From Nostoc linckia z4 (lineage in GTDB: Bacteria; Cyanobacteriota; Cyanobacteriia; Cyanobacteriales; Nostocaceae): 62,881 nucleotides of DNA. The first letter of the stretch is position 1. Each line of letters starts with the position of its first letter. The position numbers and the translations under genes are program-made. The stretch lies in NCBI RefSeq assembly GCF_002608075.1, contig NZ_LAHA01000035.1, positions 14,453 to 77,333 of the forward strand, given 5' to 3'. The notes under the pieces are model-generated. The model was given only the letters and a program-made list of their open reading frames with translations, had not been told where the DNA came from and made no database searches. This document shows, piece after piece, positions 6,069 through 58,715 of the stretch.

Positions 6069-6079
6069 GGAAAATTAAG

Positions 6080-9448: not shown

Positions 9449-9460
9449 CAGCTTTTGAAT

Positions 9461-24853: not shown

Positions 24854-26216
24854 ATGACTCCTCCAGAAAATCAAAACATCATCGAAGAAAGAAAAGAACT
24901 AATTAAGGAAGTACTAAGCGCTTATCCCGAAAAAGCAGCTAAAAAACGGGAAAAGCACCTAAACGTATACGAAGAAGGTAAGAGCGATTGCGGCGTTAAA
25001 TCTAACATCAAATCTCTTCCTGGTGTAATGACCGCTCGTGGTTGTGCTTACGCCGGTTCAAAAGGTGTGGTTTGGGGCCCTATTAAGGACATGATCCACA
25101 TCAGCCACGGGCCTGTAGGTTGCGGTTACTGGTCTTGGTCTGGTCGTCGTAACTACTACATTGGTACTACAGGTGTAGACACCTTTGGTACCATGCACTT
25201 CACCTCTGACTTCCAAGAACGGGATATCGTTTTCGGTGGTGACAAAAAACTCACCAAACTCATCCAAGAATTGGAAGTTCTTTTCCCTCTCAACCGTGGT
25301 GTTTCCATTCAATCTGAATGTCCCATCGGTCTAATCGGGGATGACATCGAAGCAGTAGCTCGGAACACATCCAAAGAAATTGGCAAGCCAGTTGTTCCCG
25401 TTCGTTGCGAAGGTTTCCGCGGTGTTTCTCAGTCCTTGGGTCACCACATCGCTAACGACATGGTGCGTGACTGGGTGTTCACCAGAGCCGACAAAGAGAA
25501 AAAAGAAGGCAAATTACAATTCGAGTCTACTCCTTACGACGTAGCAATCATCGGTGACTACAACATCGGTGGTGATGCTTGGGCTAGCCGGATTCTGTTA
25601 GAAGAACTGGGCTTGCGCGTAGTTGCTCAGTGGTCTGGTGATGGTACAATCAACGAAATGTTGATGACACCGAACGTGAAGATGAACTTGATTCACTGCT
25701 ACCGTTCGATGAACTACATCAGCCGTCACATGGAAGAAGCTTATGGTATACCCTGGTTGGAGTACAATTTCTTCGGCCCCACCAAGATTGCTGAATCCTT
25801 ACGGGAAATCGCTTCTAAATTTGACTCCAAGATCCAAGAAAACGCTGAGAAGATCATCGCTAAGTATCAGCCCACAATGGATGCGATCGTTAACAAGTAT
25901 CGCCCCCGTTTGGAAGGTAAGACCGTTGCGATGATGGTTGGTGGTTTGCGTCCTCGCCACGTTGTACCCGCTTTCCAAGATTTGGGTATGAAGATGGTCG
26001 GTACAGGTTATGAGTTCGCTCACAACGACGACTACAAACGTACCACCCACTACATCGAAAACGGCACCATCGTTTACGATGACGTAACTGCTTATGAATT
26101 CGAGGAATTTGTAAAAGCACTCAAGCCAGACTTAATTGCTTCTGGTGTGAAAGAGAAGTACGTCTTCCAAAAGATGGGTCTACCCTTCCGTCAAATGCAC
26201 TCCTGGGATTACTCCG
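24854..26216 (+). CDS. nifD: Nitrogenase MoFe protein alpha subunit NifD, 5' segment (interrupted by the nifD element at the GGATTACTCCG repeat)
   Basis: NifD N-terminal sequence ([21 protein letters not shown]...). After ...SWDYS the reading frame runs into element sequence and ends in an aberrant tail ([30 protein letters not shown]). The true C-terminus is encoded at 58716..58855. Confidence 0.9.
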
Positions 26217-26591
26217 AACCTAGCGATGCCTTCTCTTTCAGAGACGCTACCGCGAACGGCGGGCTTCGCCAACGCACTTACAAGTCAATTAAATCAATAT
26301 TTTTTTAGCTATCGGAGAAAAAAGAGCCTATTTCTAGCCTAAATCCAAATTACAAGCTTATTCATTAACAATCTGTTTTAATACTTCAGACAGTATAACT
26401 CTTATGTAATCTGGTTTTTAGATTTGAAAAGCATTTTGCTCCAAGAAAAACTGTTAAATAAAAGACTATTTTAGATGACGATTTTTTAGATTAAATGGCT
26501 AAATTTTTTTGTGTAGCACAAAGACGCAAATAAGAATGCAAAAATTCTGAATTTTTCTAAAGTGTAAGGTAATACTATATGCTGGTCTAAC

Positions 26592-26924
26592 TTAAACTCG
26601 CAATGCATCACGCATAAAAATCACTAATTTTGGAAGTGCCTGAAAAAATTCCTTTTCGTTATTGAATTGGTGAGTTTCAAGAAAGACATTGTTACTTGTA
26701 GATATTTCAATAATTTCCATTACACAAGCTCCTGACTCCCAAACTGTTACTCTACCAAGATGTAATAAACTCTCAAAATCAAGACACATAGCTGAATTAT
26801 CACTAGGTTGACAGTAGGTCAGCGTGTATTTCAGCTGATAAGCAGCAAAACGTGACTTTAATCCTGATTGAAATCTGTCAAAACCTCGTTCTGAGATTAG
26901 TTTTGTTAGTGGATTGATACTCAT
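26592..26924 (-). CDS. Hypothetical protein
   Basis: ORF only; no recognisable motifs. First gene inside the element's left border. Confidence 0.3.
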   Translation of the reverse strand: MSINPLTKLISERGFDRFQSGLKSRFAAYQLKYTLTYCQPSDNSAMCLDFESLLHLGRVTVWESGACVMEIIEISTSNNVFLETHQFNNEKEFFQALPKLVIFMRDALRV

Positions 26925-27014
26925 TTATGATTATAGAAGTTTTCATTTGCTGTGACTATACATTAGTAGCTTCAAGTTAGAATATGATACTTTACACCAA
27001 TTTTTACTTTATCC

Positions 27015-29240: not shown

Positions 29241-30779
29241 TCACTGCCCGTTAATCCGAATCAAGTCTGTCAAAATATTATCCAAACTGCCGTTAACTTG
29301 AATGCGATCGATTTTCTCTGCAATGCGTTCTAAAACTTCGAGTTCCTTGAGACGCAAAGCTACAGGGTTATCTTCCATCACTTTGGCAGTGTTTAACATA
29401 CTGCGGGTGGCGGCGGTTTCTTCTCTGCGTCTGACTACGTTTGCTTGAGCAGCTTTTTCGGCTTCGACTACTTTGCTCAAGATTGTCTTAATCTCGCCGG
29501 GTAAGATAATATCTTTGACGCCTACAGAATCTACTTCGATTCCATAGTCGGCGGTTTTTTGGCGGATATATTCAGATATGCTTGTGTCAATTGCACCTTT
29601 ATCTTCTAATAAGGCATCTAAGTTGCGTTCGCCGATCGCACCACGCAATGCAAATTGTAATTCTTTGTATAAGAAGCCGGCAATATCTGACAAGCCGCTT
29701 TTTGCTCTCAAGGGATCGAGGATGCGGAAGCCAGCTGTCAAATTTAACCGCAGAGGTACTTTATCCTTAGAAAGGATATCTTGACCTGATACTTCCATGT
29801 TTTGCAGTCTCAAGTCGATGGTTTCGGTTTGAAAGGAGCGTCCAAATAACCACCAAGCGTGTATACCTGGCGATCGCTGTCCTTGAAACTCTTGATTAAT
29901 ATACAGTAGTCCGGTGTGCTGTGCGGGTACTTGGCATGTATGCAAACAGTTGCGACTGAGCAATTTCACTTCTGCCGAACCTTCAACCAACTCAGCAACT
30001 AAGCGAGGCTCTAACTGAGCATCAGTGCTGATGTCGATAATTTCCACCTCAACACCTTGCCAAAACAGCTTGCGACTTGTGGGTGGTAAAATAGAAATCG
30101 CTTTACCTCGATACCGCACAATTGCAACTTGCCAATTCAGTAATTGTACTGTTTGGCAGTAAGCAGCAATAAAATCTGGATGTTTTTCAATTAGAACATC
30201 TTCTAGAGGAAAGTCTGGGTTAGGAACAATTCGGCTAAGAGTCCGTACTGTAACATCCCGATCCACTGACCAAAAAGCATATTCTCCAGGTTCTAGAGGT
30301 CGCACAAAATCATTTTGTACATACAGTAAACCAATCTCATACTCCGAAATTTGGAACTTTTTCACTCCATTCAAGCTGATTTTACGTAGTTGCTGCACAA
30401 AAGAACTAGGCAATTCTAAACTTTCTTCTAAGTTGAAGACATAAGATTCTACCTCAATAAAACCACGCCAAAAAGCTACCAATTGATTTGGTGCAACGCT
30501 TACCCAATTCTGGCCGTAGCGTACTAAAGCGGCTTGGTTGTATGCGGTTCTGATAATCAGTAAATGTTGTTGCAGTTCAGTCTGATGATTTCGCAACAAC
30601 AGCTCCAGGTTTTCAATTTGAGCTTGTGGCTGGTTGAGGTCATAAGTTTTTACTTGCCAATGACGACCAAAATAAGTATGTGTACCAGGCTGTAAAATTT
30701 TCTGGAAGTCGCTGCGGTGATATAAAATACCGATTTCGTTAGGTTTTATATAAAATGTTTTCCACATAGTAATTTGCAT
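29241..30779 (-). CDS. SPFH/band-7 (stomatin/prohibitin-like) domain protein with three degenerate N-terminal partial repeats
   Basis: C-terminal 170 aa have the SPFH pattern followed by a coiled coil. The N-terminus has three about 110-aa repeats of IG(I/L)LY...DF...L.PG.H.(F/W). Confidence 0.55.
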   Translation of the reverse strand: MQITMWKTFYIKPNEIGILYHRSDFQKILQPGTHTYFGRHWQVKTYDLNQPQAQIENLELLLRNHQTELQQHLLIIRTAYNQAALVRYGQNWVSVAPNQLVAFWRGFIEVESYVFNLEESLELPSSFVQQLRKISLNGVKKFQISEYEIGLLYVQNDFVRPLEPGEYAFWSVDRDVTVRTLSRIVPNPDFPLEDVLIEKHPDFIAAYCQTVQLLNWQVAIVRYRGKAISILPPTSRKLFWQGVEVEIIDISTDAQLEPRLVAELVEGSAEVKLLSRNCLHTCQVPAQHTGLLYINQEFQGQRSPGIHAWWLFGRSFQTETIDLRLQNMEVSGQDILSKDKVPLRLNLTAGFRILDPLRAKSGLSDIAGFLYKELQFALRGAIGERNLDALLEDKGAIDTSISEYIRQKTADYGIEVDSVGVKDIILPGEIKTILSKVVEAEKAAQANVVRRREETAATRSMLNTAKVMEDNPVALRLKELEVLERIAEKIDRIQVNGSLDNILTDLIRINGQ

Positions 30780-31287
30780 AGATAATTTGACCAGATTTAA
30801 TCAAAACATTTATAACCTCGCTGGAAACTAAATACCACCTATAATTCTGGAGTTGACAAACCTATAAATAAAGGTTGAAGGATTTGTTTGAGGTTTTGTA
30901 GTATTATATTACATTTTACTCTGCCGGCGCAGGTGTTTATAGTTTGGGATGCGGGCAAAAGCTTCTCCAGAACTGGATTAAGATTGCTGTTAGTTTTAAT
31001 AGACGGCTCAAAGGCAATCTAGAAAAACAGAACCGCGCTCAAATATGCCGATCGCTTTGCCAATCTAGAATTTCCGAAGTCAAAGCAGATATAGGAAAAC
31101 GAAGGTACATACTCAAGTTGGGGAGAGATTACAGTTGCGCTGGCTCCTTTACTGTTACGAACACCTGCATGACAGAGTACAAAAAACAAAAAGTTTTTTC
31201 ACTGGGTTTTTTTGAATCGCCCAATACATCTAGCTGTGACACTGCCTTGTCCCTAACAAGGTGCCCGTACCCAGGGCAGGGGTTTTT

Positions 31288-31363
31288 TGGCTGAAAGTAT
31301 AGGAATCGAACCTATAATGAATCGGCGATACACCGATCGCTCTACCAAATGAGCTAACTTTCA
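31288..31363 (-). tRNA. tRNA-like element (76 nt, encoded CCA) with a non-canonical anticodon loop (UGUAUCG); probably a pseudo-tRNA
   Basis: Folds by eye into a cloverleaf: acceptor TGAAAGT/ACTTTCA, D arm GCTC-ATTTGGTA-GAGC, T arm ATAGG-TTCGATT-CCTAT. It lacks U33 and a purine at position 37. Confidence 0.35.
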
Positions 31364-31533
31364 TGGTGAAATAGTTGGAAGCATTAAGCGGTATACGCTA
31401 TTACCAGAGGTTGGCGCACCAGTCGGGTATACAGAACCCAAACTATAGCTTTGTGGCTTTGTCGCTATCTCGCTTCAAATTTAGCACAGGAAAAAAATAT
31501 TACAAGGGAACGGGGAAATCGAGGAATTATCGG

Positions 31534-32586
31534 CTATTCTTGCGATTCATATTTTTCTTTGATGCGTTCCACACGCGATCGCAGTTCTGCACCTTTGTTG
31601 GGGTTAATCATTGCTACATAATTTGCAAACCCAGTAATTGCAGCAATTATATTAGGTGAATTGCCCCAATGTTTGCCTGACAAGCCTTCTTGTTCGATTT
31701 GATATAAAGTTGCACGAAAAGCTTTTAATGTCTTTTTAGATATATTTAATTGTGTATTTACAACAACACCTGTTACTTGTTGTTGCACAGATTTACCTAA
31801 AATATTGGTTTTATGAGAATTAACAGTAAAACCTTCACTATTAATAATTAATTTCGCATTTTTAATTAACTTATATCTTCTCTCCGATGCCTGTCCAGAA
31901 GCAGAAAATGTTAAATCATCAGCATAGCGTGTATAGGAAAATTCCAGATTTTCAGCCATTTTTACCATCCGCCGATCGAGATGATAGCAAATTAAATTTG
32001 AAATAACAGGACTGGTAGGCGAACCTTGAGGTAAGTGACGATTTTCTATACTAATATTGTGAGCTTGTTCATGTATTTCTATTTCCGAAGTAGTACAGAT
32101 CAGTGCAAAAATATTCGCTGCAATTCCTGAATAACCACACCCAGAAAATAATTCTTTGACACGTTTGTAGGTAATTGATTGAAAAAAGTTTTGTAAATCA
32201 ATGTGAACTATGACATCAGCACCAACATGAGGTTGAGCGTTGGTGACTATGGAACGATTTTTACAAAAACCATGTGCTGCATGATGAACTTCTAATTTTT
32301 CTAAAATATTTTCTAAAATCCACCTTTGAGCAGCCTTAAGATGGGGTTTGGGTGCAGAAATTAGTCTTTCTCCACCAGTCTTTTTTGAAATTTTGAAATG
32401 GACGTAATGTTTAACTTCAGAACCAGGAAAACTAGATGTCAAAAAACGCAGTTGTCCTGGGTTTATCCCCATTGCACAGGCTATTTCTGCGGCAGAATGA
32501 TATTCAGCTAAACCATGCGATCGCAATACTGCTGAATTACCCTCAATTGCTAGCGGGGTGGTGGTTAAATTTGTGGCGTACATCAT
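31534..32586 (-). CDS. Retron-type reverse transcriptase
   Basis: RT motifs hIDLqnFFqSI, LPQGSPTSP and YADDLTF. The retron-characteristic NAxxH (TNAQPHV) and VTG (QQQVTGVVV) motifs are present. 350 aa with no maturase or endonuclease domain. Confidence 0.65.
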   Translation of the reverse strand: MMYATNLTTTPLAIEGNSAVLRSHGLAEYHSAAEIACAMGINPGQLRFLTSSFPGSEVKHYVHFKISKKTGGERLISAPKPHLKAAQRWILENILEKLEVHHAAHGFCKNRSIVTNAQPHVGADVIVHIDLQNFFQSITYKRVKELFSGCGYSGIAANIFALICTTSEIEIHEQAHNISIENRHLPQGSPTSPVISNLICYHLDRRMVKMAENLEFSYTRYADDLTFSASGQASERRYKLIKNAKLIINSEGFTVNSHKTNILGKSVQQQVTGVVVNTQLNISKKTLKAFRATLYQIEQEGLSGKHWGNSPNIIAAITGFANYVAMINPNKGAELRSRVERIKEKYESQE

Positions 32587-32968
32587 AGCAAAAGATTTTT
32601 GGACTCTGCTAATGCAAGTGTTTACAGTTGAGGTGCGGGCAAAAGTTTCTCCAGAACTGGATTAAGATTGCTGTCACTTTCCCCTGGTGGAAAAAGATAA
32701 CTGCGCTCAAATACACCGTTCTATTTGCCAATTCAAAATCTCCTTAGAGAAATCGATTGTGGAAAACGAAGGGACATACTCAAGTTAAGGAGAAATACAA
32801 TTGCGCTGGCTCCTTGACTGTAGCCATCAAACATCACCTTGGGAGTGATGAGCGACAGCAAAACACTTGCACCGCAGAGTTGAGAAAATGAGAGTCTCGA
32901 ATCTTTTGGGATTCGTACCATATTGGCTACCTTAAAAGGGTAGTGTCTTTTAACCCGGACAGGGTTTT

Positions 32969-33044
32969 TGGCAGAAAGTGTAAGAATCGAACCTACAACA
33001 AATCGATTATGAGTCGATCGCTCTTCCAATTGAGCTAACTTCCT
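32969..33044 (-). tRNA. tRNA(CAU)-like gene (76 nt, encoded CCA); second copy in tandem with the canonical tRNA-Met
   Basis: Cloverleaf by eye: acceptor AGGAAGT/ACTTTCT (one G-U pair); anticodon arm ATCGA-CUCAUAA-TCGAT, identical to the neighbouring tRNA; T arm GTAGG-TTCGATT-CTTAC. Confidence 0.5.
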
Positions 33045-33045
33045 T

Positions 33046-33121
33046 TGGTGTTTGATACAGGACTCGAACCTGCGACACATCGATTATGAGTCGATCGCTC
33101 TGCCAACTGAGCTAATCAAAC
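33046..33121 (-). tRNA. tRNA-Met (anticodon CAU; elongator-type, or tRNA-Ile2 if modified to lysidine), encoded CCA
   Basis: GTTTGAT-TA-GCTC-AGTTGGCA-GAGC-G-ATCGA-CTCATAA-TCGAT-GTGTC-GCAGG-TTCGAGT-CCTGT-ATCAAAC-A-CCA. G1-C72 pair, so not an initiator tRNA. Confidence 0.75.
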
Positions 33122-33540
33122 GATGGTATAGTTTCAAGTACTCGGCGACATACGCCCATACCATAGGTAGGCGCACCAGTCAGGCACACAGAACCCGAAC
33201 CATAGCTTTGTAACTTTCTTACTATTCCGCTTCAAATTTAGCACAATCAGATTGGGGTATGGAGATTAAGTACCAGTCACAGGACTTATATCATTTTGTA
33301 GTGAGTACTTAAGTCCTCAGAGACCATTTATAAAGTAAATCTTAAGTAGTAGCATGGCAAGCCCTAAATATTGCAATAGATTTTATTGTGGGATGGGTGT
33401 CCTCACCCGTCCGGGCGGGCAGGATGCCCACCCCACAAGAGTTTACTAATGCTCGATTTTAGTCTTGTCACGGCACTACATTAATTTTATTTTCGCTTTA
33501 TGAATAACCTCTCAGTCAATTACGAATTACTTTAAAAACT

Positions 33541-34233
33541 TCAGTCCGGAAAAGCTAAACCAGTCATAGGGTCGCGAATATACAACCCTAGTGTGAGACT
33601 ACGGATTGCTTCATCCCAAACGGGTATTAATTGTTCTGCTTGATCTGCCCAAAAATCGAATGTAATCAAGCACTGAACATTTGACCCCAAACCAATGCAA
33701 ATCCGCGAAAAAGCTTCCCGTGGTTCTTCTTGTGTGTCAATAAACTTAATTTCTGTCCAAACAATTTTAGCGGTTTGGCGCTTAACGGTGATAATTTCTC
33801 CCTTTTCAATGGGATTGCGACTGTCGTCTTCTACAATTTTCCTCAAGGTAGATTTAAGTGGAAACTGACTCCAATCGTGGGGAGGTAATTGATTAAAAGA
33901 TACTTCTAGACAGCAATCATCGTTGGGTGGTTTTTTATCGACGAATTTGAAAGATTTTTCTTGTGGCTCAAAAACCCAATCTTGAGGGACATTGAAGCGA
34001 ACAGCCCCACGATTAGCAACAAATATTTTGTAGCCCGATGGAGATTCCCAGCGATGATCGGGTTTTAATTCAAGCGTTTCTTTAATCCACTGGAGATTGC
34101 TTTTTTTACGCTTTGCCATAAATAGTGTTTTTGGGATCTTTGGTGAAGAGGGCATCACCGAACAGTCTGTCACAGGGAAAAGTTGTTTTAGTAACAGCTT
34201 ACGCCGCAGATGCTTTGGGTTTACCGCAGGCAT
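33541..34233 (-). CDS. Hypothetical protein (start probably at the internal MAKRKKSNLQWIK)
   Basis: ORF only. Flanked on both sides by copies of a small GC-rich repeat (33390..33440 and 34437..34480). Confidence 0.35.
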   Translation of the reverse strand: MPAVNPKHLRRKLLLKQLFPVTDCSVMPSSPKIPKTLFMAKRKKSNLQWIKETLELKPDHRWESPSGYKIFVANRGAVRFNVPQDWVFEPQEKSFKFVDKKPPNDDCCLEVSFNQLPPHDWSQFPLKSTLRKIVEDDSRNPIEKGEIITVKRQTAKIVWTEIKFIDTQEEPREAFSRICIGLGSNVQCLITFDFWADQAEQLIPVWDEAIRSLTLGLYIRDPMTGLAFPD

Positions 34234-34875
34234 CTAAACTCTTAAAGACAGACATCGCCCTTTTTGTTAATGTTATCAAATTGCTACGGAAATCTGGTTT
34301 TATTTAAAAAATTTATTTGCCTGCTGTCCTTGGCGCAGCACAAGCATTATAGGGGTTTCTCAAACCCTCAAATTCCTACACAGCCGTAACACACTCTACT
34401 GGCGTGGCAAGGCTAAAGTTATGCATTAGCTTGATTCTTGTGGGATGGGCGTCTCGCCCGTCCGGGGCGGGTTAAAGAATTTATCCATAAGAAATTTTAT
34501 CAAACAGAATTCAGGAGTCAGTCGTCAGAATTCAGTTAGGTATTCTGTATGACTGGCGTCTGAATAATCGGGTTTAAGACCCCCACCAAATTTTCAATTT
34601 GGTGGTCTTTAATCAGTCGCAAGTCTGAATCCCCGACTGATTTATTCTGACTCCTGAATTCTGACTCCTGAATTCTGACTTCTGAATTCTTCTTCAATAC
34701 AATATTTAAGGCTTGCTACGCCACTACACATACTTAGATTTTTTCATCAATCAAATCGAATTCCTATATAAATAGTTTTCCCAAAAGAAATTTCCGAGGA
34801 ATTGGAATAACTATTATATTAAAGAAAGAATCTTTGAGAGATTTGATATTCCCAAATTAAGGAAATCTCAGTGTT

Positions 34876-35526
34876 GTGATTAAATTTTCAGCTTTCAGGA
34901 TTAAAATTTTAGCAGCAGTATTCATGGTTATGGATCATGTGTGTTATTTGCTAATACCACAGTTGATAATTTTGCATTTAATTGGGCGATTGAGTTTTCC
35001 TCTTTTTGCATGGTTGTTGGCTGAAGGCGAAAAACACACCCAAAATATCTACCGCTATGGAAGTAGACTATTAATCACAGCAATTATATCTCAACCAATC
35101 TACACTTTTGTTTTTCGGAGCTTCTCACTTAATATTCTTTTTACGCTTCTGCTTGGGCTGGGGATGTTGCGTTTAGTCAATCGTTGTTCTCAATTATGGC
35201 AGAAATTAATAATTATTGGATTGTGTGCAGTGGTGAGTGAAATCTGGGATTTTGAGTATGGAGCCTATGGAATTGGGGTAATTTTATTAATGTCTTTAAC
35301 AGACAAACTAAAGCCGAAAGTATGGTTGCTTTACTGGTGTATATTTAACTTCATTTTAGTAGTGATATCTAGAGGATATTTATATCAAAGTTTTGCAGTT
35401 TTTTCAGGATTGATTGTGTTTCAATTCAATGGTAAACAAGGTTCGCGAGCTAGATGGTTTTATTTATTTTACCCGGCTCATTTAATAATTTTAGGTATAA
35501 TTTATTATTTAATACAATCCAGGTAG
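34876..35526 (+). CDS. Polytopic membrane protein, possibly TraX-family
   Basis: Multiple hydrophobic helices. The N-terminal KILAAVFMVMDHVCYLL resembles the TraX-family signature (IDHIG). Weak. Confidence 0.4.
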   Translation: MIKFSAFRIKILAAVFMVMDHVCYLLIPQLIILHLIGRLSFPLFAWLLAEGEKHTQNIYRYGSRLLITAIISQPIYTFVFRSFSLNILFTLLLGLGMLRLVNRCSQLWQKLIIIGLCAVVSEIWDFEYGAYGIGVILLMSLTDKLKPKVWLLYWCIFNFILVVISRGYLYQSFAVFSGLIVFQFNGKQGSRARWFYLFYPAHLIILGIIYYLIQSR

Positions 35527-35713
35527 ATTGAGGATTTGATTGGTGCGATCGCCTAAATTAAATCATGTCCTTTGAAATACTTATCATTTAGGGTGACGCG
35601 GGGATACGGAGACAAGGAGACGCCAAGAGATTTTAATCATTCTCAAATTTGTAATATTATTAACCTGCGTTGCACCCTTTTGAGAACCTCATACACTTAT
35701 TTTTGATGCCACA

Positions 35714-36223
35714 TCAATAAAGCCAGCTTTGATATTCTTGATTTACATCTTTCATATCGTTGTAAAGCCAGACCATGCGATCGATGAACCAAAGTTTACC
35801 GAGTGTAACTAAAGTATAACCCAATAGAGTAATCCAGCTGTTGAGTTCGATTAAGCCCCAAATGACTAAAATTCCACCAAAAGCAGAGATACCATTGAGA
35901 ATATTAGGCACGTGATGGTGGTGGTGGGGAACAGGAATTCGATCGCGATTTAACCAAACTCGTTCGCCAAGAACACCTCTAGAAATCCAATGGTCGGTTG
36001 ATTGTGGCTTAGGAAAGATGCGCGGGTTCAACCATATCCAAACAATGGCGATGGTAACAGGAATGAGTGACCACCAACCGAACCAAACACGGCTCCATGC
36101 TGCAAAAATTAGCAGTGGTAAGACAGTAATAAAACGCGTCCATCCACTCCAAGGGTTAGCATGACGTAACCAAGCATCATCGCTCATGCTAAAGGCTGCT
36201 GCTATCTTTTTTTCAAGAGTCAT
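35714..36223 (-). CDS. Hypothetical membrane protein with a His-rich motif (VPHHHHHVP)
   Basis: Three predicted TM helices and a conserved-looking W-rich segment. No assignable family. Confidence 0.4.
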   Translation of the reverse strand: MTLEKKIAAAFSMSDDAWLRHANPWSGWTRFITVLPLLIFAAWSRVWFGWWSLIPVTIAIVWIWLNPRIFPKPQSTDHWISRGVLGERVWLNRDRIPVPHHHHHVPNILNGISAFGGILVIWGLIELNSWITLLGYTLVTLGKLWFIDRMVWLYNDMKDVNQEYQSWLY

Positions 36224-36333
36224 AGAATTAATCTTAATTTGAATTCAAAGCTTACGATCGCCTACCTCACGACTATCGTAACTGGTCATTACATTGCAAG
36301 AATATAGATAAACCTAAATTTAGTTAGCAAAAG

Positions 36334-36556
36334 CAGCTTTGACTTTCTCAAACCCCAGTTTACTTTCTCATTTTGGTGTTTTCCGCAAGCAAAATCAGCT
36401 TTGACTTTCTCAAACCCCAGTTTACTTTCTCATTTTGGTGTTTTCCGCAAGTAAAATCAGCTTTGACTTTCTCAAACCCCAGTTTGCTTTCTCATTTTGG
36501 TGTTTTCCGCAAGTAAAATCAACTTTGACTTTCTCAAACCCCAGTTTGCTTTCTTT
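36334..36556. repeat. Tandem direct repeat, 62-bp unit, about 3.6 copies, immediately upstream of the 36699 gene
   Basis: Unit cagctttgactttctcaaaccccagtttactttctcattttggtgttttccgcaag[ct]aaaat starts at 36334, 36396, 36458 and 36520. Each unit contains a TTGACT -35-like hexamer. Confidence 0.85.
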
Positions 36557-36698
36557 TTTCAGTAGTTCGCGCATTCATGACAAATATCGCCCTTGTAGCA
36601 AAAGTTATTGCAGATTTGCCGGAATTCTCTCAAGCCGATCTATACGGAATTTTTTAAGGTAAAGAATATTAACCGTACTTAATTACAAGGTGTAGATT

Positions 36699-37124: not shown

Positions 37125-37197
37125 GATGTGGGCTATTAGCTGTATGAATCTAGATGTAGAGAGGTTGCAATGCAACGTCTCTACAAGGATTTTGATA

Positions 37198-43979: not shown

Positions 43980-44020
43980 TCAGCAGTCATCCGCCGATTA
44001 TATCAAGTCATGAATTTTAA

Positions 44021-46061: not shown

Positions 46062-46213
46062 AAATTACAATTATTAATGCTTAAAGGTAAGTTGATAGTA
46101 CTTACGCATTGACCGAAAATTCCAAATGTGAATGAGTTTAAAAACCATATCTTTCGTATGGGTTTAGCATTGCTAAACCCAAACTAATTAGCTGATATAT
46201 ACCTTGAATATTC

Positions 46214-46597: not shown

Positions 46598-46599
46598 AT

Positions 46600-47475
46600 T
46601 TACTCCTTGGTTTTTAATGTTTCAATTACAGATAAAAGATCTTCAATGTCTGTTAGTAATGCGTTAATCCGTCCACTACTAGACCGACCCTCTACAAAAT
46701 CTTGAAATATGTTTTGAAAATCTCCCAGTGCTTGACTTGCATTTTCAAGTTCTGCGGCAGTGAGTTCTTGAGTTAATAGTTCTCTGCGAGTAGCTATCCA
46801 TGTATCTTCATCAGCGATGGGTGTGGGTTGGAGCAATGGGTTAATGACAAGTCTTAGTTCTTGTCTATCTTGAATTCCCTTTAAATCACCTTTAATTTGA
46901 GTACTCAGAACATTGAGTAACTCTTGCTGTGTCTTTAATTCAAGCATAATAGTCTGATTGCGTTTTTGCAGTTCTTCTTTAAGAGCGCCCCGAATCTTAG
47001 AACTGACGATTAGTTTTCCTATACCTTGAAAAACCTCTTTATTTTCTATTAAGTTGCTTTCTCGTAAGGTCTGACCTATTGTATTTAAATTATCTACTAC
47101 CCCTCCAATAGCAGTTTGTGTTCGCTCAGGAGCATCAGACCCAGCTAAGTCCTGTAGTAATTTAAAATACTTACTCAGCAAGCTGTTGTGTTTTTTGAGC
47201 CGATTAATTAAGTCAATTCTATTACTATCTGAATCTGAAAATTCATTGTAATCATCAGATGTTTGATTATTTTCTCTGTCTTGTAATAAAAGTTCTTCAG
47301 AGCTTTCGTCAATTCGAGTTACAACAGCTAGATCTAATAGTTGGTTGAGAGCTTTGGAATAATTAGTTCCTGCCTGTGCTAGTTTTTTATATTCGTCAGT
47401 GGAACGACAAGCACTCAAACAAGTTGTGGCTATTGCTACAGCAATTATTATTGGAAAGTGAATTTTATTTTTCAT
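46600..47475 (-). CDS. Putative lipoprotein with coiled-coil regions
   Basis: Signal peptide followed by a lipobox-like LSAC. Helical, heptad-rich remainder. Confidence 0.45.
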   Translation of the reverse strand: MKNKIHFPIIIAVAIATTCLSACRSTDEYKKLAQAGTNYSKALNQLLDLAVVTRIDESSEELLLQDRENNQTSDDYNEFSDSDSNRIDLINRLKKHNSLLSKYFKLLQDLAGSDAPERTQTAIGGVVDNLNTIGQTLRESNLIENKEVFQGIGKLIVSSKIRGALKEELQKRNQTIMLELKTQQELLNVLSTQIKGDLKGIQDRQELRLVINPLLQPTPIADEDTWIATRRELLTQELTAAELENASQALGDFQNIFQDFVEGRSSSGRINALLTDIEDLLSVIETLKTKE

Positions 47476-47551
47476 CTATTGTTTTCAAAGTTGCCCAAAA
47501 ATTATCGCATCAAATGTAGTTTTTGATTGAAAAATAGTAAAATAGATTAAA

Positions 47552-49222
47552 TTATCCATTTTTTAAATTCAGAAAATTTTGTCGAATCCACAATCTAAAT
47601 ATGCGTTTTAAAAGCCACTTTGTTAAGGGTTTTCCAATAAATATCCGGACATTCAGCTTAATAAAACTCCATAACTTAGATAAACGAGAACCATTATTTT
47701 TCATATCAAGCGGTTCTAGCCTGTCATTGATTAGATCCACCAAAGATTCTAAACGGAAGCTTAACTGATTTACAATTTCTTGACGTGTTTCTATGTCAAC
47801 CTCTGCCATTAACCTTCGTAATTCTGCAAGTTGATCTCGTTTGATGGCGTCATTATCTTGTAGTTGTTCTCCTTCTGGTGAACGAGGTTTTGCTAATTGA
47901 CTTAACTCTTTTTTTGCTTCATCCCAAGTATTTAAATTTTTATCGTTAACCTTACAATTAACTATCCACTCAAGAGGTGGCATTTTATTAAGTTCAAGGT
48001 TGAGTAAATCTTGGAGTTGACTCTTTGCTTGAAGATTGGACAGTTCAAATTGAGTGCGTTCCCGACCAATGTTGTAATCATAAGCCCGGAATTTCTTTTC
48101 AAGAAATCCAGCAAAGGCTGAGAAGACATCGCCAATTAACTCAAAGTCATTAGCTGTAATGGAAAATACTGGAGCATCCATTTCTTCCATAATCCAATCT
48201 TGGAAGCGAGACTGGTGAAAAATTGAACTCAGCAATGCAATTCCTGTTACCAAGAGATCGTTATCTTTTTTGATAAAAGGATTTTCGGGTAATTGGCGTT
48301 GACCTGGTGCAATATAAAGGTAATATCTTTTATCAGATAAATCTTGATTTTGATCGATGCGATCCACGAGGAGTTTAGCCATACCAATAGGCTCATTTTC
48401 AAAAACTCCACCATCTGTGTACAGATACTCCTCATTACGATCGCGACGCTTACCAAATCCACCAAAACGTCGAATTTTCCGAAGTTTAAAAGCGAAGGGA
48501 AATGCACCAGATGATAGACCGGCTTCGCGTAACTCACTCCAGTTAGTATCTCTAAGTTTTTTCCATTCTATTGACTCGCGTCCTGTTCTTGGATCTCTTA
48601 TTGTCTCTCGATCTATTTCATCAAGCGTCACATTCCCAAATCCATCGCGACGAGCTAGACACACAAATTGATCCTTATAACGGGTATATGCAAACTTTAG
48701 TGTTCCTTCTTTTCGGCCTTCACGAGCGTAATCAGTTGTAAGAGGGAAAGTATAGCCAGACAAGTTGGACATAGCTATACCAACATAAATCTCAGACGCA
48801 GCAGCCGGATGCTTTTGGTTGATTTGAACACGATCTTGCAGATATTTATTCCCAATTTTTTCAACAACTGCTGTTTGTAAAAGTGAGTATTTTTGATCTT
48901 CTTTTTCAACTTTAATTAATTCCCGAATATCAACTTCATCAACCCATGCATTGTAGAGTGGATTATTATATGGTTTGCGTAAAGACTGGTCTGGACGAAA
49001 GGGTGCAGGCTGATCGCCACAAAGAAGATGTTGGACTAAAATACAAGCCGTCATCCCACCCGCCGAAGCACCTGTAATTACATCAATTTCAATGGGTTCT
49101 TCATGATTTTTTATATCTTCGTTATGTCTGGCGATCGCTTCCAAAATTTCATACATAACGCCAGCTTCATAACTGCCAAGTGATACTGCTCCACTGATAA
49201 CAACGGCAAGCTTTTTGGGCAT
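47552..49222 (-). CDS. Patatin-like phospholipase with a C-terminal about 200-aa extension
   Basis: Gly-rich oxyanion loop (VVISGAVSLGSYEAG), GxSxG nucleophile (ITGASAGGM) and a downstream catalytic DGG (YLYTDGGVFENEP). Confidence 0.7.
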   Translation of the reverse strand: MPKKLAVVISGAVSLGSYEAGVMYEILEAIARHNEDIKNHEEPIEIDVITGASAGGMTACILVQHLLCGDQPAPFRPDQSLRKPYNNPLYNAWVDEVDIRELIKVEKEDQKYSLLQTAVVEKIGNKYLQDRVQINQKHPAAASEIYVGIAMSNLSGYTFPLTTDYAREGRKEGTLKFAYTRYKDQFVCLARRDGFGNVTLDEIDRETIRDPRTGRESIEWKKLRDTNWSELREAGLSSGAFPFAFKLRKIRRFGGFGKRRDRNEEYLYTDGGVFENEPIGMAKLLVDRIDQNQDLSDKRYYLYIAPGQRQLPENPFIKKDNDLLVTGIALLSSIFHQSRFQDWIMEEMDAPVFSITANDFELIGDVFSAFAGFLEKKFRAYDYNIGRERTQFELSNLQAKSQLQDLLNLELNKMPPLEWIVNCKVNDKNLNTWDEAKKELSQLAKPRSPEGEQLQDNDAIKRDQLAELRRLMAEVDIETRQEIVNQLSFRLESLVDLINDRLEPLDMKNNGSRLSKLWSFIKLNVRIFIGKPLTKWLLKRIFRLWIRQNFLNLKNG

Positions 49223-49751
49223 TAATTTCCCTCACTTCATGTCTAAAAATTTAGAATAAACGGAATTTTTTTGTATAAATGCTTTTTTTGGGCAGTTTTT
49301 TAACACTTTTCCGTAGATTTCCTGATTGTATCAGCAATTATTTTTTTTAAAACTACAGATGTATTAAAAAATATTACACAGATGGTAATTGAATTTTAGA
49401 ATTTTTTTATATCTCTGGACATAGAAAAATAAGATGCCGCTCTGGAACTTATTTGCCAACAAGCATAGATAAATCAGGTTTAAAATATTCTCTAATGAAA
49501 TAAATAAAAAGAGTCTTGGGTTACTACATCCAAAAAAGCTGCTTTAGTAGATGTAAAATATAGCTAGAGGTAATTTAATAAAGTTAAAATAAATAAAGTT
49601 TTCTTTACACATGAATGCTTTTCAGACTAAAGCCAGTATTATTCTTAATAAAAAACAAAAAATATACATCAAAGTCATCAAAATTTTTAATTTATGAAAT
49701 TGTGGTGCGTTGCATTTGAGAACAAGACACCACAATCTACATCATTTAGTT

Positions 49752-50549
49752 TTACAAATGATTTTTAAACAATTCTAAAACATGTTGCCAAGCATCAGGA
49801 GCAGCTTCAGGATTGTAACTTGGATGTTGTTCCATAAATGGGTACTTATCTTTGAAAAATCCGGCGAAAAATCCGTGCCCGGCATCGTATCTAAATACAC
49901 GATGATTGATTTGATGTTTTTTTAATTCTGCTTCAATTTGTTCAGTTTCCTCCTGAGAAATAAATGTATCTCTTGTACCGAAAAAGGCATAAATAGTACC
50001 TTGAATTTGTGAAGTGCGATTAATAGTTGGAGTTTCTTCACCATAACTAGAAGTGGTAATTCCAGCACCGTAAAACGAAGCTGTAGCTTTGATATCCGGG
50101 AAAGTTGCAGCGATGTAAGCAACATGACCGCCAAAACAAAAACCAACGACACCAATGGCATCATGTTTAACATTGGGTAAAGTTTTTAAGTAGGCGATCG
50201 CCGCTTGAATATCACTTAAGATATCTTGATACTTTACTTGTTGATAGTATTCCAATCCCAGCCGATAGGCTTCTGGACTAAATCCAACATCTTCAGCACT
50301 AAGATCCGCTGCAAAACCAGGAGCAATCCGTTGATACATCGCGGGAGCTATTACTACATAACCTTGTTTAGCAATTAATTCAGTGATGTCTCGAATGTTA
50401 TTATTGATGCCAAAAATTTCTGGAAAAACGATAACGGCGGCAAAGGTTCCTTCATGTGCTGGTTGAGCTAAGTAAGCATCAATTTCTAAGTTATTGTTAG
50501 GTATTTTGACTTTTGCGGTGTTAATTTCGATGTTTGTGATTTCTACCAT
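49752..50549 (-). CDS. Dienelactone hydrolase-family alpha/beta hydrolase
   Basis: GFCFGG nucleophile-elbow region, plus conserved His and Asp positions (YDAGHGF). Confidence 0.65.
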   Translation of the reverse strand: MVEITNIEINTAKVKIPNNNLEIDAYLAQPAHEGTFAAVIVFPEIFGINNNIRDITELIAKQGYVVIAPAMYQRIAPGFAADLSAEDVGFSPEAYRLGLEYYQQVKYQDILSDIQAAIAYLKTLPNVKHDAIGVVGFCFGGHVAYIAATFPDIKATASFYGAGITTSSYGEETPTINRTSQIQGTIYAFFGTRDTFISQEETEQIEAELKKHQINHRVFRYDAGHGFFAGFFKDKYPFMEQHPSYNPEAAPDAWQHVLELFKNHL

Positions 50550-50948
50550 CTTTTTTCAGGTTATTTGATACCAACTTTTCTATTTTGGCTGTTTTTTGAC
50601 ACGGATGATAAACTGGCATTGCATTTAAGTCAGAAATGTTTTGGTGTTGATTGTTGACTGATGACGGTTGACTGTTGACAGTATGAGTGAGTGTATAATT
50701 TAAAAGTTTAATAATCTGCAACAAGCTAATTTTTTCCGTTTACACAGCAACCACAAGCTAGACGGTCGTATGATAAATCACACAACCAAGGCATGAAAAT
50801 ATTTATTTCTCAGTCAACAGTCAACATTGAATTTATAACTTTTGAATAGACAACATCTCGAACTTCTGGATGATACTAAGGGTTTTTGATTTGTGCGACC
50901 TTACAAAGGTAAGCATAAAGACTCAATATTAAGAAGCACAAAAAAACT

Positions 50949-51488
50949 ATGCCAGATCAAACATTTAGAGCAAACATACCAGAAGTTGACCCAACGGAGA
51001 TTGAAGATACTCGAACTGCCATCGCTGACGAACATCGTTCATTTTTAGAAAAAGTCATGGTGAAAGGTGGGTTTGCAGACATCTATGACGCCAGAGACTT
51101 TACCGAAGTTGTGTTTCGCGTCATGCGTGATTTGATGACAACAGAAGCAAGCGATCGCGTCGAGGGAGAACTGCATAAAGAAGCCGTATCTACCGATGAA
51201 AAAGCACTCCAGTTTGATATTGCCGATCTTTGGAAAGATACCAATCCAATTGTGGGATTTTTAAGCCGAGTTCGTCCACCCTGGCAAGGCCCTGGAATTT
51301 TCAAAATCGATTCCGATCGCTTTTTGTTCCGAGTTGCTAATGAAGGGGGCAAACCAGAAACAGTTGACCGAGAACAGGCAGTAAAAGCCGTATTTTCTGC
51401 CACCAAAGACGAACTTTCCCAAGAAAGAATTGAAGAAATTGCTAGTTGGCTACCTGACTATGTACGTCAGCTTTGGCAACAAGCTTAA
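50949..51488 (+). CDS. Hypothetical protein (possibly DUF2267-like)
   Basis: Weak resemblance only. Confidence 0.3.
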   Translation: MPDQTFRANIPEVDPTEIEDTRTAIADEHRSFLEKVMVKGGFADIYDARDFTEVVFRVMRDLMTTEASDRVEGELHKEAVSTDEKALQFDIADLWKDTNPIVGFLSRVRPPWQGPGIFKIDSDRFLFRVANEGGKPETVDREQAVKAVFSATKDELSQERIEEIASWLPDYVRQLWQQA

Positions 51489-51555
51489 TTACAAGTGTGA
51501 AAAAGTCAAGCCTGTTTGCAGTTGACGATAATTGCAAGCAGACTTTTTATATAAA

Positions 51556-51924
51556 TCACTCCGCAGACTTCACCGTTTGATTTGCCACCAAGCGTGGTTT
51601 CTTTCGTTCTGACTTACGCGTTCCACCAGCCATACCATATTCATCACTATTTTTGCCATAGCGAGACGCAACACTCAGCAGCATGTGTTCAGAATAATCA
51701 TTCAACACACGTTCAGCTTCTTCTAATGCATTCTGCGTTTTATCTATCATCGTTCGTGCTTGATTATGGGCGGCTAGCTTTTCTCGCAAATCCTGAATCA
51801 TAGTATTGTAACTAGTTATTGATAACCCATTACCAAAATCTAAGTCAGGCTTAATCGCCTGCATTCCTTCAACCCGTCGTTCAGCTTTCGTCAGTGCAAC
51901 TGAGTTTCGTCTGCGTTGCGGCAT
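51556..51924 (-). CDS. Hypothetical protein; paralog of the 36699..37124 gene
   Basis: See the paralog alignment. Preceded on its strand by the 20-bp tandem repeat array at 52121..52298. Confidence 0.5.
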   Translation of the reverse strand: MPQRRRNSVALTKAERRVEGMQAIKPDLDFGNGLSITSYNTMIQDLREKLAAHNQARTMIDKTQNALEEAERVLNDYSEHMLLSVASRYGKNSDEYGMAGGTRKSERKKPRLVANQTVKSAE

Positions 51925-52120
51925 AAAGTTTTCCTTTTTGGATTAATTTATAAAGAACGCTAATGTTCCTTGACACTGAGTTCTTTATATACCACTAAAT
52001 TACGCAATTAGCAGATGCACCAGCCTGAGTAAAGCTACATAATTTATAGAACATTCACAATACAGCATAAATACGGTTATATTTGCTGAAATTTTTGAAT
52101 ATTAAGGGATTTACGACTTG

Positions 52121-52298
52121 AAAACTTGATTTAGAAGTCCAAAACTTGATTTAGAAGTTCAAAACTTGATTTAGAAGTCCAAAACTTGATTTAGAAGTTC
52201 AAAACTTGATTTACAAGTCCAAAACTTGATTTACAAGTCCAAAACTTGATTTACAAGTCCAAAACTTGATTTACAAGTCCAAAACTTGATTTACCAGC
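52121..52298. repeat. Tandem direct repeat, 20-bp unit (aaaacttgattta[gc]aagt[ct]c), about 9 copies
   Basis: Units start every 20 bp from 52121 to 52281. The first four have tagaag, the next four tacaag, and the last is degenerate. Confidence 0.9.
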
Positions 52299-52349
52299 AA
52301 GCTGTTGCACAGCACAGCCTAAATTAGGGATGCGATCGCGCTTATTTTC

Positions 52350-52685
52350 TCAGGCTACGCCATATTGCGTATATTGGCGCAAGTGTGATGGCTGTAGTCC
52401 TAAAACAATATCCTCTCTGGGTACTCCCATTTCAGTCAACTCTTGGGCAATTTGGATATCAGTCATATTACGCTGAATCCATATTTTTTCATCTTTAATA
52501 TCGAGATGTATCACACAATTATAAATGCGATCGTATCCATACCAGCCAATCTCTAAAATCTGGTAATGGTCTCGCGCTGTATCGAATATCAGTTGAATTT
52601 CAACATCTTCCTCTGAAGGTTGGTAACTGCTATATTTAGTTAATAACTTTTGAATATATTCACGATATTGGTCTAGCTTTGCCAT
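52350..52685 (-). CDS. xisI: XisI (accessory factor of fdxN-element excision)
   Basis: 111 aa. The N-terminus MAKLDQYREYIQKLLTKY and the size match XisI. Overlaps xisH by 13 nt, as in Anabaena. Confidence 0.75.
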   Translation of the reverse strand: MAKLDQYREYIQKLLTKYSSYQPSEEDVEIQLIFDTARDHYQILEIGWYGYDRIYNCVIHLDIKDEKIWIQRNMTDIQIAQELTEMGVPREDIVLGLQPSHLRQYTQYGVA

Positions 52686-53089
52686 TGCACAATCACCTCA
52701 TCATTTGGATCGTAAACTATTAATTTAACTTGATATTCTTGTACTGAACTTTGGGCAAAGTCCCGGCTAAATAGCGATCTATACGTTGACAGTGGAACTG
52801 CTAGGAACAAAACTCTCTCAGGTTCTCTGAGTCGCAAAGCTAATCGATAATTGAGAAACTGCCCCAAAGCCGCATGGTAGTCAAAAAGTTCTGAATCCCC
52901 TAAAAAACTTTTGATTTCAACAGCAATTTTCTCTGTTCCTCGCTCAGCTGCTAAGATTTGTTCCGCACCTAAATCGATTGACATTTTATCTTTGCCAAAC
53001 TTAACCACTAGCGGATCGTGCGTAATAATCCACCCTTCTTTTTCTAGTCCCCGTTTAACGGCTTCATGAAAAATGTCTTTTGCAGACAC
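52673..53089 (-). CDS. xisH: XisH (accessory factor of fdxN-element excision; endonuclease-like fold)
   Basis: 138 aa. MSAKDIFHEAVKRGLEKEGWIITHDPL matches the XisH N-terminus. Paired with xisI. Confidence 0.75.
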   Translation of the reverse strand: MSAKDIFHEAVKRGLEKEGWIITHDPLVVKFGKDKMSIDLGAEQILAAERGTEKIAVEIKSFLGDSELFDYHAALGQFLNYRLALRLREPERVLFLAVPLSTYRSLFSRDFAQSSVQEYQVKLIVYDPNDEVIVQWQS

Positions 53090-56600: not shown

Positions 56601-56873
56601 TTAACGGCGTTCCTCAATGATAGTTTCAGAGACAGGCTTTCCCTCGACCTGAATTAGTCTTCGTTCAGCTATTGGTTCGTAAGCAAAATGCTTAATTTGC
56701 TTTACTAAGCCAGAATCGATTAAAGCTTGGTGAAATGCTGTTTGCTTAAGATTTTCCTCTTTAACAGCAAGATACTTTTGAATTGTTTGGCTAAGTTGTT
56801 GAAGCTCTGTTGTTTCCAGTGTCTCAAGTTGCTTAAGTATTTGGTTTAAGGTTTCTAGTGCCATACCTTTCAA
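56601..56873 (-). CDS. Putative antitoxin partner of the truncated vapC
   Basis: 90-aa ORF. Its stop directly abuts the PIN ORF start. Confidence 0.35.
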   Translation of the reverse strand: MKGMALETLNQILKQLETLETTELQQLSQTIQKYLAVKEENLKQTAFHQALIDSGLVKQIKHFAYEPIAERRLIQVEGKPVSETIIEERR

Positions 56874-57049
56874 ATAATTATTGCTTTTATAGAGTTTTTT
56901 GCTTAACAGTTGAATTTAATAAATCTAAAATTTAGATACACTTAGCTCGAATATCTAACAAAGTGGAAACCTATACAGATGAGTTACTATAAGCTTATAT
57001 TAGTAGTAAATTTGACAATTGAACACACTACACAAAATTTTTTAACAAT

Positions 57050-58351
57050 TCAACTTCGCTTATAAACGATTTCCATTTTCAACTTCTCAACCTCTAATCT
57101 CAACTTTTCATTTTCCATTCTCAATTTAGCATTTTCTTCCCTAATTAACTCAACTTCATTCCTCTTACTCAACGCCTGATTCATTGCTAACTTTCGCATA
57201 TCTAGCGAAAACCATCGCTGATAAGTTTGCGTGTGAACTTGGACGCTATGACCTAGATTATCTGCTGCTGCTTTAATTGGAATTCCTAAAATATGCGCTC
57301 GAATTGCCCAAGCGTGGCGTAAATCATAAGGCTTAAAATCTAAGCCGATTTTACGAAACCACCAACTGACTCGTTGTGTTAATGCCGTGATTTCTGCATA
57401 ATTAGTATTATCTTTTTTACTAATTGCCGTTGCCAGCATTTCTAAATATTTGGGATTCCTTAAATCAAATTCCTCAATCCATTGTTTATATAAAGGTAAA
57501 GCTTCTCTCTCGCCAGTCTTACAATCTTTATGAACCTTCCAGGTTAAATCCAAATTTTCTTGACTTAACCACCAATCGATGTCAGGATTAATAAAAAGCT
57601 CGCGCGGTCGTAAACCGAAAACTGCTAACATTCCATAAGTCCAGCGCCAAAGCTGCCAGCTATCTTGGACATTTTGGTTAACTTGATTGCCTCTGGTATT
57701 TAAGTATTGTTCAAACTTGCCAATCCCCTCAGCTATTTCTGCATCAGTCGGTATATTGCGGGAATTATTCTCTGGCATTTTGGAGTATTTTGATAAATCG
57801 ATTTCGATTTTGAACGTCTGACAAAATACAGCGATCGCTCTTGCTGCATTATACTTAGACCATTCCTTATCGATTCTTTCAATCGCATTTATCAAATTCT
57901 CAGAAGTCGCCAAATCAGCAGGATTAGTAAATCGCTTAGTTCGGGAAATATAATAAAAAAAAGTATGTTCGCTTTTAGTCGTCCGTTTGTGAGTTTTAAA
58001 ATATTCATCTTCAAATTTTTCCAGCAATTCGCCAATTGTTTTACAATCTTTTTTAATTGCCTCATTGCCTAAATATTTTTCATTCCATGCAAAAGTTTTA
58101 CGAGCAATTAACTTTCCTAACTCATAAGCTTCTTCCTCAGCCGTTTTTAACCCATCCAAATTAGCAGGAATATTCAAGCTGAGATTGTATTGCTTTCTAC
58201 CAGTGCCATTTTTATCCTTGTCCCCAGGTTTAATCGGTAACGTAGCGCGTAATTGCAGACTTCCATTAGATTCTCGAATTGTTACCTTAGTCTTTGCAGA
58301 CTTCAAACGCAGATTTACCGTCTCTAATTCCAGTAATACTTTTGATTTCAT
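57050..58351 (-). CDS. xisA: Site-specific tyrosine recombinase XisA (nifD-element excisase)
   Basis: C-terminal catalytic region with R...HxxR...Y motifs (DLRHAWAIRAHILG; QTYQRWF). Located at the nifK-proximal end of the element. Confidence 0.85.
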   Translation of the reverse strand: MKSKVLLELETVNLRLKSAKTKVTIRESNGSLQLRATLPIKPGDKDKNGTGRKQYNLSLNIPANLDGLKTAEEEAYELGKLIARKTFAWNEKYLGNEAIKKDCKTIGELLEKFEDEYFKTHKRTTKSEHTFFYYISRTKRFTNPADLATSENLINAIERIDKEWSKYNAARAIAVFCQTFKIEIDLSKYSKMPENNSRNIPTDAEIAEGIGKFEQYLNTRGNQVNQNVQDSWQLWRWTYGMLAVFGLRPRELFINPDIDWWLSQENLDLTWKVHKDCKTGEREALPLYKQWIEEFDLRNPKYLEMLATAISKKDNTNYAEITALTQRVSWWFRKIGLDFKPYDLRHAWAIRAHILGIPIKAAADNLGHSVQVHTQTYQRWFSLDMRKLAMNQALSKRNEVELIREENAKLRMENEKLRLEVEKLKMEIVYKRS

Positions 58352-58715
58352 GTGTTCTGTTTACAGCTTTGCAGACTTGAAGCGAAATAATTCGTAATTT
58401 AAGACTCTTGATTGCGGGCATTGCTGAATTCTTACTCTCTGCGACTCTCTCTTGAAAAGTTCAGATGCCTGCGGCAAGCCCCTTCGGGTCTACGCCGGAA
58501 GCCGGCGCTCCGACTTTTCGCTGCGTCTGTGCGTGAGTAAACTCATATTTTAAATCAGCAACACATAATTACAAATTACGAACTACGAATTCTCCTTTAG
58601 CCTATATTTAGTCTAAAAATAAATGCGTTCTCAACGAACAATGTTTAATTCTGACATTGCTCATTGCAAACATTAACCCCTCTAAAAAAATAAAAGCATT
58701 AAAAGGATTACTCCG

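Follow-up and report, generated by a model that had tools for sequence, protein, structure and literature searches.

That nifD elements are excised during development has been established since the 1980s, and here we analyzed such an element in a stretch of 62,881 bp from Nostoc linckia z4 (assembly GCF_002608075.1, contig NZ_LAHA01000035.1, positions 14,453 to 77,333; hereafter the window, in whose coordinates all positions are given), where it splits the nitrogenase gene nifD. Among the closest known systems is the nifD element of Anabaena/Nostoc sp. PCC 7120, which is 11,289 bp long, has the 11-mer GGATTACTCCG at nifD nucleotide (nt) 1353 and carries xisA (alr1442), the gene of a tyrosine recombinase, at its nifK-proximal end and on the opposite strand (Hilton 2016, PMC4874684, Table B). 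Late excision during heterocyst differentiation is the PCC 7120 model given in the introduction of that survey, which catalogued 34 nifD elements, reported a mean of 41.5 kb over all elements, and recorded this 11-mer at that nifD position in PCC 7120, A. variabilis, N. punctiforme, Nostoc PCC 7107 and 7524, Calothrix PCC 6303, Rivularia, and Fischerella PCC 9431 (Hilton 2016, PMC4874684, Table B). Two other elements of PCC 7120, those in fdxN (with the serine recombinase XisF and with XisH/XisI) and in hupL (with XisC), are likewise developmentally excised from within heterocyst-specific genes, although their target genes are different and the fdxN element uses another class of recombinase. 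Closest in host to our locus is an entry in Table 2 of a later comparison, "Nostoc linckia z1, nifD element, 32 500 bp", which is also mapped in Fig. 3 of that paper (Pratte & Thiel 2021, Microb Genom 7:000595, PMC8461463). As detailed below, the element in the window is an ordinary, already known XisA-type nifD element.

The positions that define the element are the following:

24854..26216, + strand: nifD 5' segment, codons 1-454, with the left repeat copy at its end
26206..26216, + strand: left 11-bp direct repeat GGATTACTCCG, the recombination core
26217..26350, + strand: left border-internal region, aligned with 11 complete small elements
57050..58351, - strand: xisA, encoding a 433-amino-acid (aa) tyrosine recombinase (Pfam, PHROG and motif evidence)
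58352..58704, - strand: xisA upstream region and right border-internal region
58705..58715, + strand: right 11-bp direct repeat GGATTACTCCG
58716..58855, + strand: nifD 3' segment, 46 codons and the stop codon; nifK then starts at 59138

An exact search of the window for GGATTACTCCG gave precisely two copies, one at 26206-26216 and the other at 58705-58715, both on the + strand, and two or more copies arose in none of 100 dinucleotide-preserving shuffles (shuffle mean, 0.01). The start-to-start spacing of the two copies is 32,499 bp. The first copy begins at nt 1353 of nifD, which itself starts at 24854, so that the gene is interrupted after codon 454; read without splicing, nifD continues for 30 codons into the element and reaches a stop codon at 26308, yielding a product of 484 aa. 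Joining the two segments at GGATTACTCCG instead gives a NifD open reading frame (ORF) of 500 aa that ends at 58855. Residues 10-488 of this spliced protein align with the solved alpha subunit of a MoFe nitrogenase (9hbc_A, E-value 2e-258), with no break and with identical residues across the junction, and neither half of nifD contains a frameshift or a stop codon. These results bear out the original prediction, which was made from the DNA letters, on the two repeat copies, the length of about 32.5 kb, the restoration of a complete NifD frame, and the identity of 58716..58855 as the NifD C-terminus. The element has a lower guanine-plus-cytosine (GC) content than its flanks (37.6% versus 43.1%), which is the general pattern among such elements (Hilton 2016, PMC4874684). 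Around it, the nif cluster runs in the order nifB (18304), fdxN (19928), nifS, nifU, glbN (23043), nifH (23799), nifD, the element, nifK (59138), a Mo-nitro_C gene, and nifE; fdxN is uninterrupted in the window (19928-20317), and the rest of the cluster within the window is intact as well.

The recombinase gene lies where it had been predicted from the arrangement in PCC 7120. Located 353 bp inside the right border, on the nifK side of the element and in the orientation opposite to nifD, the 433-aa ORF carries the precomputed Pfam families XisAC_N and XisAC_2nd, a weak Phage_integrase match and PHROG integrase matches, and the motifs GLRPRE, DLRHAWAIR, and HTQTYQRW can be read in its sequence against the general R..HxxR..Y consensus. 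Nostoc linckia z-series strains encode a protein identical to it on 13 public contigs, and the window itself is essentially the reverse complement of LAHE01000029.1 (GCA_002608225.1). When we scanned one genome per GTDB species for relatives of this protein, we obtained 80 loci with identities of 86-95%, the nearest relatives reaching 95%; the alignment covered all 433 residues in 77 of these loci and at least 431 residues in the other 3. In 79 of the 80, the xisA relative adjoins the same nifD 3' junction on its inner side (TACTCCG, then GPYHGYDGF). The same range of identity, 86-95%, separates the protein from the xis products of catalogued elements such as those of Fischerella PCC 9431 and Chlorogloeopsis PCC 6912.

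Conservation extends from the recombinase into the DNA that adjoins both junctions. On the left, alignment with the 11 complete small elements revealed that AACCTAGCGAT ... GAGCCTATTTCTAGCCTAAAT is kept across genera, and we infer that these conserved sequences may serve as an arm site for XisA. On the right, where the xisA upstream regions of 6 loci were aligned, about 115 nt adjoining the junction are kept across genera, including TGTTTAATTCTGACA at 58642-58656 and TAGCCTATAT. In PCC 7120, the BifA/NtcA sites that have been reported upstream of xisA take the form TGT-N9/10-ACA. Hilton 2016 (PMC4874684) describes NtcA as a presumed regulator of xisA. Each border region also contains a GC-rich, hairpin-type insertion, one just inside the left border and the other in the spacer upstream of xisA. 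The first, of about 50 nt (~26228-26278), has a full-length counterpart only in locus L006 and a shorter one in L005, and the second, of about 118 bp (~58420-58540), is specific to this lineage, being found in none of the 6 aligned loci. Both appear to resemble the small dispersed repeats described in Nostoc genomes. The start codon of xisA (ATG) lies 364 nt from the 3' end of the TACTCCG core here, versus a modal 246 nt. We considered whether this longer spacing reflects a truncation of XisA, and rejected it: between species, the length differences of the xisA-border spacer are not multiples of 3, and in the 77 loci noted above the alignment spans the whole 433-aa ORF. Because its length varies in this way, the spacer is non-coding and tolerates insertions.

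The locus thus combines the features by which XisA-type nifD elements are defined (the nifD-1353/1355 group of Hilton 2016), namely the position in nifD, direct repeats containing TACTCCG, an XisA recombinase, the restoration of NifD upon joining, and the border sequences. Its length had been presented as noteworthy, being roughly three times that of the PCC 7120 element (11,289 bp versus 32.5 kb), and the implied novelty proved unfounded. Published elements at nt 1353-1357 start at 2.7 kb in Richelia RC01, measure 23.7 kb in N. punctiforme, 35.2 kb in Calothrix PCC 7103, and 58.0 kb in Anabaena PCC 7108, and exceed 328 kb in Calothrix desertica (PMC4874684); Table 2 of Pratte & Thiel gives nifD elements of 31,130 bp in N. 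linckia NIES-25, 32,989 bp in Nostoc Moss3, and 58,153 bp in Nostoc 2RC (PMC8461463). Among the species loci collected here, 11 contained complete small elements of 6.4-11.6 kb, and our junction finder reproduced the published sizes exactly for Fischerella PCC 9431 (9,271 bp) and Chlorogloeopsis PCC 6912 (7,899 bp). In the 53 species loci that have a full 10 kb of interior sequence, the left border was reached within ~11.3 kb in only 9, and the other 44 elements are longer than that. We therefore rejected the idea that 32.5 kb is an unusual size; it is the 11-kb element of PCC 7120 that stands at the small end of the range. The N. linckia z1 element interrupts the same gene in the same species group, the z strains share an identical XisA, and its tabulated length of 32,500 bp is close to the 32,499 bp measured here, so that the two are for practical purposes the same element. 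The R-M, retron-type RT, and tRNA-like content described below is not taken up in the text of that paper that was consulted. Since that table lists the z1 element with this length, the finding has already been published, length included. As a discovery it consequently carries little weight, the size variation having been catalogued in 2016 and this element tabulated in 2021. Its value is rather that of a clean, fully bounded example of how such elements grow by the addition of cargo modules to a scaffold of XisA, borders, and backbone.

We infer excision, its timing, its regulation by NtcA, and the fate of the circle from homology with PCC 7120. In vegetative cells, nifD is interrupted after codon 454; late in heterocyst differentiation, XisA encoded by the element would recombine the two GGATTACTCCG cores and release a circle of 32,499 bp, and the product would be a continuous nifHDK operon encoding the 500-aa NifD upstream of nifK. 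In PCC 7120, the excised circle persists in heterocysts, and therefore the cargo would leave the chromosome but not necessarily the cell. Three points weigh against this account. Excision in this strain is a prediction from homology to PCC 7120; the ~118-bp insertion upstream of xisA could in principle affect its expression; and the measured length differs from the published one by 1-11 bp, depending on the counting convention or the z strain. The first two would also fit a fixed insertion that can no longer be excised, in which case nifD would be a pseudogene and the strain would use another nitrogenase cluster or would not fix N2 in heterocysts; the ~118-bp insertion lies in the promoter region of xisA. 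However, the xisA ORF is intact, retains its catalytic motifs, and is 95% identical to its nearest relatives; the 11-bp cores are perfect and the border arms conserved; the remaining nif genes of the window are undamaged; and both halves of nifD are free of damage and highly similar to functional NifD, which is not expected of a pseudogene. We do not think that the ~118-bp insertion disables xisA, and we regard a fixed insertion as very improbable. With high confidence, then, we interpret the locus as a typical representative of the XisA-type nifD-1353/1355 group, namely the nifD element of a Nostoc linckia z-series strain, which XisA would excise.

The interior of the element was surveyed by tblastn of 29 element ORFs against the 80 loci and by inspection of the contexts of close homologues of its reverse transcriptase (RT), which we refer to as loci L082-L086. 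Apart from an RT module described further below, it contains the following genes, in which fractions give the number of loci with a homologue:

26592..26924, - strand: TriTu-family immunity protein, 110 aa (Pfam PF24689, E-value 8e-24)
27015-27677, + strand: NspV-family endonuclease (NCBIfam NF052465, 347 bits versus a cutoff of 290; PADLOC REase_II, 1e-132)
27674-29116, + strand: type II methyltransferase (PADLOC MTase_II, 1e-238)
33541..53089: central cargo, backbone genes with rarer inserts between them (Pfam, tblastn)
33541-34233: Alr1449-family protein (26/80)
36699-37124: hyp141 (24/80)
38696-40909: Cache-HAMP histidine kinase (24/80)
44841-45488: S-adenosylmethionine (SAM) methyltransferase (23/80)
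49752-50549: dienelactone hydrolase (45/80)
50949-51488: DUF2267 protein (43/80)
51556-51924: hyp122 (24/80)
52350-53089: XisH and XisI (near xisA in 18/80 and 25/80, respectively)
hyp90 (12/80)
53310-54332, - strand: 340-aa unknown protein beside the STAND NTPase
54528-56225, - strand: STAND-type NTPase with EAD4 (Pfam NPHP3_N, 6e-13; EAD4, 1.5e-5)

As judged from these sequence comparisons, the element is composed of a conserved recombination module (xisA and the border interiors), a backbone shared among Nostocales, and lineage-specific inserts. The rarer inserts between the backbone genes comprise TraX, DUF6653, an RTX protein, a PBP_like_2-DUF4912 protein, and a patatin block (45675-49222). 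Among the 80 loci, the patatin block was found only in L003 and L004, and neither PBP_like_2-DUF4912 nor DUF6653 was found in any, although the former is present in L082 and L086. The insert at 53310-56225, formed by the STAND NTPase and the adjacent 340-aa protein, likewise had no counterpart in the 80 loci and was found only in this lineage. Relative to the PCC 7120 element, the additions include the restriction-modification (R-M) pair, the RT module, the STAND NTPase, the patatin block, XisH/XisI, the histidine kinase, and further genes. At least one backbone gene falls in a Pfam family that takes its name from alr1449 of PCC 7120, a gene that we take, from its locus-tag number, to lie inside the nifD element of that strain. 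The PCC 7120 element carries cyp110 (PMC1079853), whereas no window ORF has a P450 family match in Pfam. Other large nifD-1353/1357 elements share the insertion point, the core repeat, and the XisA clade with this one and differ in the composition of their cargo; the Nostoc 2RC element, for example, has an extra nested mobile insertion of 18.4 kb that is not present here. We note that the XisH/XisI homologues (52350-53089) lie inside an XisA-type nifD element while fdxN in the same window is uninterrupted. In PCC 7120, XisH and XisI belong to the fdxN element and help its serine recombinase, XisF; they are not known to have a role on an XisA-type element.

At the extreme left end of the element lies the TriTu-family immunity gene, which was found in none of the other 80 loci. 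This end (26217-26924) is completely different from the corresponding ends of L082 (15720-17903, with AAA_15 and DUF3226) and L086 (13999-15729, with a pentapeptide protein and unknowns), and that of L083 differs too, which suggests that the left end may be a hot spot for cargo insertion in elements that are otherwise similar. The left half of the element has counterparts in these further Nostoc nifD elements. Next to it, the endonuclease and methyltransferase genes overlap by 4 bp (27674-27677); homologues of the endonuclease carry the Pfam family NspV, and L082 and L083 have homologous pairs at the corresponding position. A complete NspV-type type II R-M pair on the element is thus well supported by sequence, and excision would take both genes from the heterocyst chromosome in a single step.

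This cargo raises the question of whether the element is mainly a mobile defense island or a prophage remnant, excised in response to phage or stress and present on account of what it carries. Several observations speak for such a view, including the R-M pair, a retron-type RT, the STAND NTPase, the patatin-like protein, and the TriTu immunity protein, as well as a left end that varies between strains in the manner of a defense hot spot; in addition, Hilton 2016 (PMC4874684) notes that cyanobacteria without heterocysts have such elements too and that a phage origin is possible. However, more than half of the genes belong to the non-defense backbone, and across the 80 species xisA and its place of insertion follow the phylogeny of the hosts (see also PMC8461463). 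The defense assignments of two of the proteins are moreover weak, with PADLOC scores of 4.5e-11 (STAND_TPR) and 9e-5 (Avs1b) for the STAND NTPase and a match of 6e-5 for the patatin. A phage origin is not supported by PHROGs: this comparison gave no phage structural or replication genes, only integrase matches and a marginal match of a 127-aa ORF to a transcription regulator. The original prediction of a large cargo of candidate defense and accessory genes therefore stands in part: the R-M pair and the retron-type RT are strong cases, the STAND NTPase and the patatin are weak ones, and more than half of the cargo is non-defense backbone. We consider it very unlikely that the element is primarily a defense island or prophage remnant rather than the XisA-type excision element described above.

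The RT and its surroundings form a module that is set out here from its 5' end, followed by the next gene on the same strand:

30918..33245, - strand: RT module as a whole (PADLOC, tRNA search, folding)
module 5' end, - strand: leader of ~120 nt
33121-32969, - strand: two tRNA-Met(CAT) genes
~32880-32604, - strand: structured RNA copy A, ~277 nt, ending 18 nt upstream of the RT gene
32586-31534, - strand: RT gene (PADLOC RT_XIII, 1e-149)
after the RT gene and before the tRNA-like gene, - strand: second leader copy
31363-31288, - strand: tRNA-like 'Ile'(TAT) gene with the non-canonical anticodon loop UGUAUCG
31155-30918, - strand: structured RNA copy B, just upstream of the SPFH gene
29241..30779, - strand: SPFH/Band 7 protein, 512 aa (Pfam Band_7, 5e-29)

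Assignment of the predicted RT to the retron clade is well supported by its PADLOC match, and the NCBIfam model for the retron St85 RT scored 228.7 bits, just below its cutoff of 235. The two RNA copies are 75-78% identical. Copy A folds with z = -5.4 and a closing stem of ~19 bp that is kept in copy B and in locus L007; on the twin copies, with three independent sequences available, RNAalifold gave a covariation term near zero (+0.44 kcal/mol, slightly unfavorable) on an alignment that was poor at the 5' end. An Rfam scan of the module at E ≤ 1 returned the three tRNAs and two sub-threshold matches at chance level, and no retron msr family. Two ORFs initially listed here, 'hyp115' (32733-33080) and 'hyp116' (30944-31294), were dropped as probably spurious, as they overlap tRNA genes or conserved RNA. 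At least three other Nostoc assemblies (L082, L084, and L086) show the same order of the module in their nifD elements, and in L082-L086 the RT is followed by an SPFH gene; L007 lacks the RT but has the tRNAs, the SPFH gene, and a single RNA copy. Type XIII retrons (Mestre 2020) are described with two partners, a wH/SWIM Zn-finger protein and an ARM/HEAT-repeat protein (PMC7736814). None of the ORFs neighboring the RT has a SWIM or ARM match in Pfam, and the neighbors are instead the tRNA-like genes, the Alr1449-family protein, and the SPFH protein. SPFH is not mentioned in the two retron surveys examined (including PMC7736814), nor in the papers listed by a literature search on retrons, anti-phage RTs, and SPFH. 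One might accordingly picture the nifD element as a defense island of the vegetative chromosome in which the tRNA-like genes, RNAs, RT, and SPFH gene make up an undescribed retron-like system, with the SPFH protein as effector and the tRNA-like RNAs as parts of the system; we consider this unlikely, while giving it some small chance. The recurring module of retron-type RT, tRNA-like genes, and SPFH gene has apparently not been examined before, and we offer it as a lead, not as a result.

Outside the element, the window contains an array of clustered regularly interspaced short palindromic repeats (CRISPR) at 15410-16811, with 20 copies of the 37-nt repeat GTTTCAATCCCTAATAGGGATTAAGAAAAATTGTAAC (Rfam CRISPR-DR5), located between a gene for a Crp-family regulator and nifB, ~1.5 kb upstream of the latter. 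No cas genes were recognized among the large window ORFs that were screened. Targeting of the element by this array was considered and rejected, since no spacer matched the window at up to 5 mismatches. Further upstream of the nif cluster, the region 2651-14528 includes a gene for a PhyH-family dioxygenase and one for a repeat protein resembling squalene-hopene cyclase, a gene for a LanM-type class II lanthipeptide synthetase (6080-9448), and a gene for an exoprotein of 1,244 aa with a TPS (two-partner secretion) domain (10794-14528).

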